From NCBI GenBank assembly GCA_019637755.1, contig JAHBVC010000001.1:1453181-1517180 (forward strand): a stretch of 64,000 nucleotides of DNA, in the 5' to 3' direction. Shown piece after piece: positions 32,794 through 34,576 of this stretch. The notes beneath the pieces were generated by a model. The model worked only from the letters and a program-made list of their open reading frames with translations, was not told the origin of the DNA and did no database searches. A program made the translations under genes and the position numbers. The stretch is from Anaerolineales bacterium (GTDB lineage Bacteria; Chloroflexota; Anaerolineae; Anaerolineales; UBA11579). Each line of letters begins with the position of its first letter. Positions within the stretch are counted from its first letter, which is position 1.

Positions 32794-34563
32794 ATGAGCG
32801 AGATCGTGATTTCTCCAGGCTGGGCCAGCTACCTGCGCGTCAGTGATGAGGACAAGCAAACGCCGGAACGCTCGTTTGCCTTCCAGCGCAAGCACATTCA
32901 GGACAGCTTGCTGGCCAGCTCGAATGTCGAATTCAAGCGTGAATATTGTGACATGCTCACCGGCACCAGCCCGAACCGCGCAGACTATCAGCAGATGCTG
33001 AGCGATGCCCAGGCTGGGAAGTTCTCCCACTTGGGTCTGTATCGGGCAGACCGCTTTGGCCGCAATGCAGTGGAGGGACTGCAAGCGGCCACTAAGCTGA
33101 TTAGCTGGGGTGTCAAGGTTCGGGTAGCTAATATGCCCACCCTCCAGCCGGAAACTCCGGATGGCTTCTTCATGTTCCTGTTGCAGATGGGCTTAGCGCA
33201 GCGAGAAGTGGATGTGTTGCGTGAACGCACCCGGGATGGGATGGAAGCCAAGATGCGTATGGGCGGCTGGCCTAACAAAGCTCCCTTTGGTTATGTCAAC
33301 AAAGAGAAGCTAGTTTCCAGTAACAAGTATGACCGCTGGGTGGAGCAAGACCCCAACAGTATCCAAGTGTTGAAGGATGCTTGGGATTTTCTGCTCACTG
33401 GCCGCTATACGCTGGACCAGATATGCGAAGAACTCACCCAGCGCGGCTACACAACCTACAGCGGCCGTCCCTGGGCCTGGAATGACCCTAAAACGGGCCG
33501 CAGGGAATATGCGGCCAACCGCCTGCACAAAATCCTGCACAACCCGTTCTATGCAGGCTGGGTCACTTCAAAGCGTTTTGGGATCGTCGCTGGTGAAGTT
33601 CGAGGCTCCTGGGAGGCAATTATCACGCCCAACCAATTCCAGAAGGGCGTAGATATTCTCAGGAAGAACGGCTCCGAGAAATCCTACGAGCGCAAGAACT
33701 TCTACCTGCTGCGTGGCCTACTCTGGGCAGAAGTCGGTGGTGAACGCTACAAGTTGCACGGCTCCACACCGAGCGGGCGTTCACAGAGCTACTCCTACTA
33801 CATCACCCATGCCAAGCCAGGCGGCACCAGCCTGCACATCCCTTCCAAGCTGGTGGATGGGCAGATGGTGGATTTGCTGCAAGGCATTGAAATAGACGCG
33901 GACTTGATTCCAGAAATCCGCAAGATCTATGTTCAAGAAGTCCAGCAGTTCACCAACCAGGATAGGGACAAGCAGGTGGCCGACATGCGCCAGCGGCTGT
34001 CTCAGCTCAAAGAGGAAGAGGCGCGGCTGGGTCGCTTGCTTATCACAGGCAAGATCACGGAAGAAGCCTATGACCAGCTGCGCCTGGAATGGCAGGAAAA
34101 GCTGCGGAATGTAGAGCTTGGTTTGGCAGAGATGGAGCGGGATGCCAAGGTTCACCTTGACGATCTGGACTTGGCCATTGGGCTGCTAAGGGAGTTGGTG
34201 GATTACTACTTCTGGCTGGAGGACAAGCAGAAGAGCACCTTGCTTCAAATTCTGTTCAAGCGGCTGATAGTTGACGAGAAGGGCCGCCTGGTAGACTATG
34301 AGTTGAACTCGCCTTTCGTGTATCTGCGCTCCCTGGCTGACCGTTTCGGGCCGCCCTCGGAGCCTTCAAGCGGTTCGGTACAAGTCCGCGAAGGGGCATT
34401 ACTGGAGAGGGAATGTGCCCTTTGGGCACATTCCCTCTCCAGTTTAGGGAGTTCCTACTCGGTTGTGCCGAGTGACGAAATTCCACGCATTGGAATCGGT
34501 ACACATCCGCGAAGGCACATTCCCTCTCCAGCTAGGGAGTTCCTACTTCGCTGCGCCGAGTGA
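32794..34563 (+). CDS. large serine recombinase (integrase)
   Basis: ASYLRVSDEDKQ (catalytic Ser), GLYRADRFGRN, a recombinase domain, and a coiled-coil (DMRQRLSQLKEEEARLGRLL..). The last 60 or so codons run through a repeat, so the true C-terminus is uncertain. Confidence 0.9.
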   Translation: MSEIVISPGWASYLRVSDEDKQTPERSFAFQRKHIQDSLLASSNVEFKREYCDMLTGTSPNRADYQQMLSDAQAGKFSHLGLYRADRFGRNAVEGLQAATKLISWGVKVRVANMPTLQPETPDGFFMFLLQMGLAQREVDVLRERTRDGMEAKMRMGGWPNKAPFGYVNKEKLVSSNKYDRWVEQDPNSIQVLKDAWDFLLTGRYTLDQICEELTQRGYTTYSGRPWAWNDPKTGRREYAANRLHKILHNPFYAGWVTSKRFGIVAGEVRGSWEAIITPNQFQKGVDILRKNGSEKSYERKNFYLLRGLLWAEVGGERYKLHGSTPSGRSQSYSYYITHAKPGGTSLHIPSKLVDGQMVDLLQGIEIDADLIPEIRKIYVQEVQQFTNQDRDKQVADMRQRLSQLKEEEARLGRLLITGKITEEAYDQLRLEWQEKLRNVELGLAEMERDAKVHLDDLDLAIGLLRELVDYYFWLEDKQKSTLLQILFKRLIVDEKGRLVDYELNSPFVYLRSLADRFGPPSEPSSGSVQVREGALLERECALWAHSLSSLGSSYSVVPSDEIPRIGIGTHPRRHIPSPAREFLLRCAE

Positions 34564-34576
34564 CGAAACTCCACGC
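34374..34576. repeat. two tandem repeat units, about 88 % identical apart from a 31-nt indel
   Basis: Unit 1 is 34374-34488 and unit 2 is 34495-34576. Both contain TCGGTACA..TCCGCGAAGG..CACATTCCCTCTCCAG..TAGGGAGTTCCTACT..GCCGAGTGACGAAA.TCCACGC. Confidence 0.85.
34402..34442. repeat. perfect 19-bp inverted repeat with TTT centre
   Basis: CTGGAGAGGGAATGTGCCC-TTT-GGGCACATTCCCTCTCCAG. Confidence 0.95.

Follow-up and report, generated by a model that had tools for sequence, protein, structure and literature searches.

Large serine integrases, such as those of A118/LI, Bxb1, phiC31 and SPbeta (SprA), and likewise TnpX and TndX, combine Resolvase and Recombinase domains; they join a quasi-palindromic attachment site of ~50 bp on the element (attP) to a shorter site in the host (attB), with few identical bases at the crossover and a distal motif that lies 5 bp farther out in attP. 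To our knowledge, tRNA genes were for a long time not counted among the targets of serine integrases. In 2020, a survey that covered 2168 genomes assigned t(m)RNA targets to only 14 of 297 serine integrases, a use that it called previously unreported and in need of proof (PMC7192596). We focus here on a stretch of 64,000 nucleotides from an Anaerolineales bacterium (Chloroflexota; contig JAHBVC010000001.1 of assembly GCA_019637755.1), below called the window, in which a large serine recombinase gene runs into a tandem repeat that contains a perfect palindrome. We read positions 27401-34398 as an integrative and probably mobilizable element of ~7 kb at the 3' end of a tRNA-Arg(CCT) gene, and the region of the repeat array as its right junction (attR); on the sequence comparisons set out below, we give this reading a probability of about 0.8.

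For an integrase open reading frame (ORF) that crosses attP, the closest analogues are the tyrosine integrases of the myxophage Mx8 (IntP) and of SSV. The Mx8 integrase gene was reportedly described as spanning attP by Tojo et al. in 1996. Cis-mobilizable elements (CIMEs) and tandem accretion at the sites of integrative and conjugative or integrative and mobilizable elements (ICEs and IMEs), as for ICESt1/ICESt3, leave several att-type repeats in a row beside the target gene, separated by segments that are decayed or poor in genes, and IMEs of Firmicutes are known that carry a serine recombinase together with a Rep_trans (MOBT) relaxase. One account describes, for both Mx8 and SSV, an integrase ORF that crosses attP and a C-terminus that changes on integration (PMC4383910).

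By its domains and the geometry of its attachment sites, as read from the sequence, the enzyme studied here is a large serine recombinase; what is unusual is its tRNA target, together with a P half-site that lies within the integrase's last nine codons. Set against the known large serine integrases, the locus thus differs in its target, a tRNA 3' end, in having a P half-site inside the integrase's last codons, in lacking conserved Cys pairs at the expected zinc ribbon and in a host-side half-site that is poorly symmetric. It resembles Mx8 and SSV in that the integrase ORF would cross the attachment site and have its C-terminus altered upon integration, and classical tRNA-targeting islands in that it sits at a tRNA 3' end and leaves the tRNA intact. 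It differs from both in its recombinase family, whose chemistry is unrelated, and in a block of identity of only 6 bp; furthermore, no long piece of tRNA is duplicated, and only a non-conserved tail is swapped, leaving the conserved protein undisrupted. With CIMEs the locus has in common att-type repeat arrays beside the target gene and orphan sites retained at unoccupied loci; the recombinase here, on the other hand, is of the serine family, and the units, which go down to ~100-120 nt, consist of host-type hairpins plus a P half-site. With the IMEs of Firmicutes, finally, it shares a module of Rep_trans gene, small ORF and large serine recombinase with variable cargo, but its hosts are Chloroflexota (Anaerolineales), its target is a tRNA and the att site lies within the integrase gene itself.

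The Island and Its Integrase

The island starts directly after an intact tRNA-Arg(CCT) gene and stands out by a G + C content of 0.45-0.56 (~27.4-34.4 kb) against ~0.62 outside (Table 1). Its genes run in the order unknown ORFs, merA, merR, Rep_trans gene, small ORF and large serine recombinase; the small ORF, at about 32592-32762, is a candidate directionality factor. The last three genes form a conserved module that is also present in L001 and L002 (the prefix L denotes loci compared with the window), and L027, a different metagenome-assembled genome (MAG), has a mer/Rep/int island at the same tRNA, with a mer region 83 % identical to that of the window. The merA product matches Pfam Pyr_redox_2, Pyr_redox_dim and HMA, and that of merR matches MerR_1 and MerR-DNA-bind; inverted repeats lie upstream of the Rep_trans gene at 31389-31435 and 31510-31558. 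In the 3.5-kb element of L035 no ORF of Rep_trans size was found, and we make no claim of a minimal Rep-plus-integrase element.

The target itself can be compared between sites that share their flanking genes; three of these are occupied (window, L027 and L116) and four are not (L099, L117, L118 and L119). In L116 and the four unoccupied loci, tRNA-Arg(CCT) follows the same enoyl-CoA hydratase gene; in the latter four it carries no island. L116, whose enoyl-CoA hydratase is 98 % identical to that of the window, is the same species from another sample, SRR15237809, and its contig ends in the same left junction (attL). A promoter-hairpin motif downstream of the island, which is the point where ordinary host sequence resumes in the window, and the Mo-oxidoreductase gene behind it are shared by three of the four unoccupied loci, the contig of L099 ending before them. 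The locus thus shows what a tRNA-targeting element should show, namely an intact tRNA, two junctions around element DNA and unoccupied sites in relatives.

Within the integrase, the catalytic domain matches Pfam PF00239 (E = 2e-21, residues 11-159), with R15 and S17 (YLRVSDEDKQ) invariant across 15 homologues, the Recombinase domain matches PF07508 (E = 3e-9, residues 190-290) and, by phmmer, residues 13-494 align to the SPbeta integrase 9dxh (E = 5.7e-5); the protein is therefore assigned to the large serine recombinases. A zinc ribbon gave no Pfam match, and conserved Cys pairs are absent from the alignment of 15 homologues, though the region aligns with the SPbeta integrase; residues ~300-345 may form a ribbon domain without cysteines. 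Homologues are plentiful in MAGs of Anaerolineales, and exact-protein look-ups of the window integrase and of the neighbouring PNPOx protein returned no record.

The conserved protein stops at codon 535 (..GSVQVREGA, 34398), and 54 codons follow. The 15 homologues share a terminal motif, GGSxHIREGA, and diverge fully after REGA. The original prediction, made from the letters of the window and its ORFs, had taken the tail beyond the conserved part as the product of a duplication and not as selected coding sequence, and past about codon 535 this is borne out by the alignment; of the contrary case, that homologues keep the tail as coding sequence, what holds concerns the first nine codons of the unit, kept at the DNA level, and the remainder is not kept. 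In all likelihood the integrase ORF crosses attP, and the tail beyond 34398 is host DNA read to the first stop, giving 54 codons in the integrated state and, as computed from the reconstructed joint, 41 codons in the circle.

Anatomy of the Attachment Sites

At the right end, a core of 27 nt, GGTTCGGTACAAGTCCGCGAAGGGGCA, encodes GSxHIREGA and is at once the integrase's last nine conserved codons and the start of the repeat unit. BLAST homology to the window ends at 34398 or 34399 in all seven loci L001, L025, L026, L027, L028, L033 and L088, and in every locus compared the sequence changes abruptly after the core's last base. The core has 0-2 mismatches even among integrases only 60-67 % identical, and its third codon positions are as conserved as its first and second (0.92 versus 0.91), against 0.60 for third positions in LNSPFVYLRSL, the best-conserved protein block nearby; the constraint therefore acts on DNA. 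A second core or tRNA-like repeat was not found at the island's left end, as would be expected if the recombinase is of the serine and not of the tyrosine family. In a scan of viral contigs the core had 21 matches, of which 20 are unrelated phage coding sequence and one is probably coincidental, and Rfam gave no match above threshold on core-bearing soil loci, with gathering and E-value thresholds both tried. We also considered the core as the 3' end of a tRNA-like mini-gene (promoter, ~60 nt, terminator) in soil contigs and rejected this, as the putative 5' acceptor strand varies without compensation.

At the left end, the identity between the window and L027 extends from inside the tRNA to exactly 27423, and the two then differ until the mer genes. 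The segment that follows the tRNA, CCTTACAAGACCCAACACGAACC, is an imperfect inverted copy of the core; this P' arm is present in the window, L027 and L116 and missing from the unoccupied sites, which read tRNA..GGGGCA/TA[C/T]G-hp1-hp2, where hp1 and hp2 are the hairpins described below. L099 reads tRNA..GGGGCA, TAC-hp1-TAAG-hp2-AACGCGAT-core-TAG-hp1.., and the right flank of the L027 island, TACTCAGCGGCTTGCGCCGCTGCTAAGGGAGTTG..., is homologous to the sequence after the tRNA in L099 and L118 (B' flanks). GGGGCA is the only block common to attB (L099, L117-L119), attL and attR, which places the crossover within it; strand exchange would most likely take place within 27395-27400 and 34393-34398, and the exact central dinucleotide would belong to this block.

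Joining both ends of the element reconstructs an attP of 50 bp, GGTTCGGTACAAGTCCGCGAAGGGGCACCTTACAAGACCCAACACGAACC. Its P arm matches the reverse complement of P' at 14 of 25 positions (p about 0.0012 under a null of any 25-mer of the window), and the corresponding value is 15/25 for L035, where the element lies at tRNA-Arg(CCG). A search for the left ends of distant elements by the mirror of their own core gave clear matches for the window, L027 and L035 only.

The tRNA sequence GGTTCG-----AGTCCCACCTGGGGCA agrees with the core at 17 of 22 positions, with one 5-nt gap after the distal hexamer. In L035, tRNA and element both read CGTTCG...GGGGTA, with 16/22 matches and the gap in the same place, so that P co-varies with its tRNA. 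The B arm, GGTTCGAGTCCCACCTGGGGCA in the window, is 20-22 nt long and the P arm 25-27 nt (window and L035). The core is thus probably a mimic of the T-loop and acceptor end of tRNA-Arg(CCT), with its distal hexamer GGTTCG 5 bp farther from the centre. In large serine integrases, attB has the motif bound by the zinc-ribbon domain 5 bp closer to the centre than attP does and is itself ~10 bp shorter (Rutherford et al. 2013, PMC3783163); the 5-nt gap between B and P arms therefore matches this rule.

A different tRNA supplies a second, independent set of sites: L081 contains an unoccupied tRNA-Arg(CCG), in which ..GGGGTA is followed by TATAATTTGGACAAAACTAGTCAGAATT, and the same sequence follows the cores in L084, L090 and L036. 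In L043 (2174-2268) and L048 (1627-1722), the integrase 3' arm abuts the 3' end of an opposite-strand tRNA-Arg(CCG) or tRNA-Lys(TTT), so that the element is inserted the other way round relative to the integrase gene; such an orientation is to be expected if polarity in a near-palindromic site depends on the central dinucleotide alone.

In the mechanism that we propose, the large serine recombinase would insert the element into the 3' end of tRNA-Arg(CCT), with a P half-site formed by the integrase's own last nine conserved codons and P' (27401-27423) as the other half. The predicted joints are the circle, GGTTCGGTACAAGTCCGCGAAGGGGCACCTTACAAGACCCAACACGAACC, and the empty site, GGGTTCGAGTCCCACCTGGGGCATTACTGGAGAGGGAATGTGCCC; everything to the right of 34398, including the palindrome and both repeat units, would then be host-side DNA.

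The Repeat Array and Its Hairpins

The repeat search of the window gives arms of 20 nt (34401-34420 and 34424-34443) that are 100 % complementary around a 3-nt loop; the inverted repeat first noted is thus indeed perfect, its arm length having been put at 19 bp where 20 nt are computed (34401-34443). The two adjacent tandem units, originally put at about 88 % identity, are resolved into direct repeats of 26 nt (34375-34400 and 34496-34521, 85 %) and 44 nt (34445-34488 and 34533-34576, 89 %), and the claim that unit 2 keeps only the right half-site agrees with a third copy of the arm at 34514-34531, identical to 34425-34442 at 18/18 positions. The arm 18-mer has three copies in the window, all within the array, against a shuffle expectation of 0.07, and three copies were reached in 0/100 shuffles. 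Folded as RNA, unit 1 yields -67 kcal/mol (z = -7.2).

The palindrome of 43 bp, with its lone half-site 89 bp away, could be regarded as a recombination or accessory binding site of the integrase, since the dyad is close in length to a serine-integrase att site and its arms are 100 % identical next to sequence that differs by 11-15 %, which could mean sequence-specific constraint. We judge this very improbable. First of all, the homology of independent element copies stops at 34398/34399, 3 nt before the palindrome. Second, what element and target share is GGGGCA, at the end of the 27-nt stretch that starts the unit. Third, the arm is unlike the P arm and unlike the tRNA (B) arm, has no copy at the island's left end and is absent from 0.9 Mb of related loci. 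Finally, integrases that are 93-100 % identical (L033, L088) adjoin a quite different hairpin of 8 bp. The original suggestion of an att-like site is thus retained for the locus, as a recombination junction of a serine integrase, and lost for the dyad itself, of which the left arm falls inside the ~20-bp B' half of attR.

What the palindrome may be instead is seen from other loci. All unoccupied sites and most right junctions have a hairpin, hp1, 3-7 nt after GGGGCA, usually as GCAGCGCC-TGGC-GGCGCTGC with a stem of 8 bp; nine versions are 96 % paired, with compensatory changes in 3/8 pairs. It is followed by a composite hairpin, hp2, of the general form GGAGTTGC..inner stem..GCAACTCC, for which nine versions are 92 % paired and five of the seven inner pairs show compensatory changes; the observed values were reached in 0/500 shuffles. 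The palindrome occupies the hp1 position, 3 nt after GGGGCA, with a sequence unrelated to the usual hp1 and a stem of 20 bp, and is probably the window lineage's own version of hp1. Rfam 15 gave only spurious miRNA-hairpin matches on the palindrome, well below gathering scores.

L118 has an hp1-hp2 unit without a core, and in L099, L117 and L119 hairpins resembling hp2 also stand ahead of the tRNA. From this we take both hairpins to be native to the locus, and the repeat array is likely to be host-side and older than the island. Their function may lie in the 3' processing or termination of tRNA-Arg; no T-tract follows either hairpin in the window. The hp2-type hairpins upstream of tRNA-Arg(CCT), with an outer stem G[GT]AGTTGC/GCAACT[CA]C, are located at about 1000-1085 (minus strand) in L099, 10810-10925 in L117, 4805-4925 in L119 and 27262-27326 in the window, so that structured hairpins stand both before and after the tRNA gene. 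Short matches (GAGTT.., GGCTGAC) had raised the possibility that hp2 is a decayed integrase 3' end, which on inspection was rejected, their order and spacing being wrong.

Since the element encodes a Rep_trans protein and both hairpins are strand-specific with compensatory changes, they could also be the element's single-strand origin (sso) or origin of transfer (oriT), or else the terminator of the integrase gene. This is highly unlikely: the hairpins are found at the element-free sites L117, L118 and L119, hairpins like hp2 lie upstream of the tRNA as well, the conserved stretch that precedes the Rep_trans gene holds better origin candidates, and a terminator is at odds with the missing T-tracts.

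The three arm copies are identical, whereas the remaining sequence of the units differs by 11-15 %; either the palindrome would have arisen by a recent inverted duplication or unit 2 would have lost an arm between short GGGCA repeats. The earlier proposal of a deleted palindrome arm is borne out in so far as the lone half-site fits the loss or the gain of an arm. The window units are each other's closest relatives among the units compared.

Both units can be translated into similar peptides, and the unit is found in several genomes without an adjacent recombinase, so that a repeated C-terminal protein motif, or a dispersed element similar to repetitive extragenic palindromes or miniature inverted-repeat transposable elements (REP/MITE), might be envisaged. 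Neither is credible to more than a very slight degree. The spacing of the units, 121 nt, equals 1 mod 3, and the integrase ORF enters unit 2 in another frame; the similar peptides are therefore a by-product of the DNA repeat, and, in addition, the tails are not conserved and substitutions between the units are not biased to third positions. As to dispersal, the 44-mer of the repeat has no further copy within the 64-kb window, no copy of the unit was found in the flanks of 33 genome loci, and integrase-free copies all lie directly 3' of tRNA-Arg(CCT). The unit does occur away from recombinases, as in the contrary case that had been envisaged, at the unoccupied targets L099, L117, L118 and L119 and there only directly downstream of that tRNA; many scattered copies were not found, and among the loci compared the units elsewhere stand only 3' of tRNA-Arg(CCT) or after integrase-linked cores.

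Orphan Cores and the Origin of the Array

Unit 2 begins with a degenerate core (core'), GAATCGGTACACATCCGCGAAGGCACA, which matches the core at 23/27 positions and no longer has an intact GGGGCA; with the right arm alone of hp1 and a partly broken hp2, this unit is a decayed copy. Orphan P-type cores at the same relative position are found in L002, L025 and L099 (26-27/27), in L119, which has one unit and a 25/27 core, and in L117, which has three units with degenerate cores; L118, on the other hand, has a single hp1-hp2 unit. These orphan cores carry a 5-nt insertion and lie downstream of hp2 in L099, L119 and L117, and also behind integrase-linked cores in L002, L025 and the window. They may be scars of earlier elements, being attR-like in that a P arm is joined to a host-type flank, and the tandem repeat is accordingly best seen as an older array of such attR-like scars at an integration hot spot, which we consider likely.

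An unlikely alternative, but one that deserves weighing, is that the units travel with the element: every core followed by a host-like flank would be a usable attR, and the array would consist of segments shuffled much like cassettes. Excision at a distal core would take the intervening unit along, and excision at a proximal core would leave units at the tRNA. The family would, on this tentative view, keep arrays ending in functional P half-sites beside tRNA-Arg, and the choice of attR at excision would gain or leave segments, which might range from hairpin units of 100 nt to integrase-free cassettes of several kilobases such as one with a TIR-TPR gene in L036. It finds support in mosaic units, unit 1 of L025 being 92 % identical to unit 1 of L099, and unit 2 of L025 89 % identical to unit 1 of L026, at a different site of the same genome, when the units within L025 are only 74 % alike. 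Orphan cores, furthermore, remain at 25-27/27 while their surroundings diverge, and larger integrase-free segments are bounded by identical cores (the TIR-TPR segment of L036; L059, L064, L072, L074, L081, L097 and L098). It is opposed by the core-free hp1-hp2 unit of L118, which makes the hairpins native to the tRNA locus, by the mutual closeness of the window units, which fits local duplication, and by the core' of the window without GGGGCA.

Several observations do weigh against the reading preferred here. First, no unoccupied site of the window's own lineage was found, and it is by extrapolation from relatives with a different hp1 that the palindrome is placed behind the tRNA prior to integration. 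Second, the host-side half-site B' gives no convincing mirror of the tRNA arm and differs between hosts. Third, the sharp boundary between linker and core in orphan units is not accounted for by this reading. Finally, in the MAG DTUCFX4 (JAJTXV01) four or more diverged copies, with mutual identities of 87-92 %, are spread over different chromosomal sites next to housekeeping genes, and hp1(-hp2) comes after every one of them; together with the 89 % identity of L025 unit 2 and L026 unit 1, this suggests that units can also travel with elements.

The scale of this family's activity is apparent from other contigs. In DTUCFX4 (L025, L026, L028, L033 and L051), at least four to five copies of the Rep_trans-int module lie at contig ends, and one of them is 100 % identical to the window integrase gene over 1.8 kb, when host genes are only ~75 % identical; this indicates that the element would recently have passed between different hosts and entered the same site. 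Contigs with several cores and integrase pseudogene ends are common in soil metagenomes. In L036 (11564-15555) and the soil contigs L059, L064, L072, L074, L081, L097 and L098, two to three identical P-type cores lie 0.5-4 kb apart. The inter-core segment of L036 contains a gene for a TIR-TPR protein of 950 aa and closes, directly before the core, with ~130 nt of conserved non-coding sequence (TTGACG-17-TAAATT and two hairpins); this sequence and the core also occur in ~25 soil contigs without integrase.

Other Features Beside the Island

The promoter-hairpin motif has a perfect sigma-70 promoter, TTGACA-16-TATAAT, 6 nt after which follow a hairpin, GACGAGCGTCC-[GGGTGCCCCCCTCACCT]-GGGCGCTTGTC, and TTTAA. 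Copies are found in L033 (1127-1207), L117 (11316-11392), L118 (11418-11492), L119 (5164-5240) and L124 (8334-8410), with ~95 % conservation where the host genes are only ~75 % identical, and also upstream of int inside two elements (L001 9876-9931, L002 1648-1703). Rfam gave no match to the motif, which is a candidate for an undescribed leader, attenuator or small RNA. The PNPOx-like gene that separates the repeat from the Mo-oxidoreductase gene (34740-35090) is shared by L118 and missing from L033, L117 and L119; it is variable host gene content beside the hot spot. At the same tRNA-Arg(CCT) site, L124 (4836-8334) retains an arm similar to P' next to the tRNA, CCTTTAGAGACCCATCAGGAACC, together with 3.3 kb of AT-rich remnant sequence in which PD40-like and GerE-like ORFs occur; having neither integrase nor right junction, it is a decayed element.

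Table 1. Features of the tRNA-Arg(CCT) locus, in window coordinates
Feature	Position	Strand	Basis
tRNA-Arg(CCT), predicted integration target, intact at the left end of the island	27327-27402	+	ARAGORN; Rfam 58.7 bits
Putative B arm of attL, GGTTCGAGTCCCACCTGGGGCA (T-loop, 3' T-stem, 3' acceptor strand, discriminator); crossover probably within GGGGCA 27395-27400	27379-27400	+	shared block
Putative P' arm of attL, CCTTACAAGACCCAACACGAACC, imperfect inverted copy of the core	27401-27423	+	present in window, L027, L116
Predicted integrated element, ~7.0 kb	27401-34398	.	composition; Pfam; homologous island in L027 at the same tRNA
Cargo genes merA (28545-30233) and merR (30230-30682)	28545-30682	-	Pfam
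Rep_trans family protein (rolling-circle initiator or MOBT-type relaxase)	31661-32614	+	Pfam PF02486, E = 2e-20
Large serine recombinase gene	32794-34563	+	Pfam Resolvase and Recombinase; SPbeta integrase alignment
Core, putative P arm of attR, GGTTCGGTACAAGTCCGCGAAGGGGCA; crossover probably within 34393-34398	34372-34398	+	homology end; conservation
Hairpin 1 of unit 1, perfect 20-bp palindrome, TTT loop; putative host-side (B') flank	34401-34443	+	repeat search
Hairpin 2 of unit 1, GGAGTTCC-TA-ACTCGG-TTGTG-CCGAGT-GACGAAATTCC	34448-34484	+	pairing across nine units
Orphan degenerate core (core'), GAATCGGTACACATCCGCGAAGGCACA, 23/27, GGGGCA no longer intact	34493-34519	+	comparison of cores
Lone right arm of hairpin 1, unit 2	34514-34531	+	18/18 to 34425-34442
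Hairpin 2 of unit 2, inner stem partly broken	34536-34572	+	hp2 comparison
Host promoter (TTGACA-16-TATAAT) and conserved hairpin leader, upstream of the PNPOx and Mo-oxidoreductase genes; outside the repeat	34622-34696	+	motif also in L033, L117, L118, L119, L124

Implications

The framing of the dyad as an att site is unsupported, yet the att junction at this locus is genuine, and it is informative. For annotation, the integrase tail and the tandem repeat are junction artefacts and form no domain. If the cassette-like reading of the array were true, it would amount to a system in which a serine recombinase shuffles cassettes, much as in an integron or in accretion and mobilisation. The natural sequences display an offset of 5 bp between attP and attB half-sites that had previously been deduced from one crystal structure, and the reconstructed att pairs are candidate new substrates for genome engineering. 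The integrase family is widespread in Anaerolineales and soil metagenomes, with several occupied and unoccupied pairs at tRNA-Arg(CCT) and tRNA-Arg(CCG) and members that also abut tRNA-Lys, and it offers a probable case of a protein C-terminus that is dictated by a DNA-binding site.

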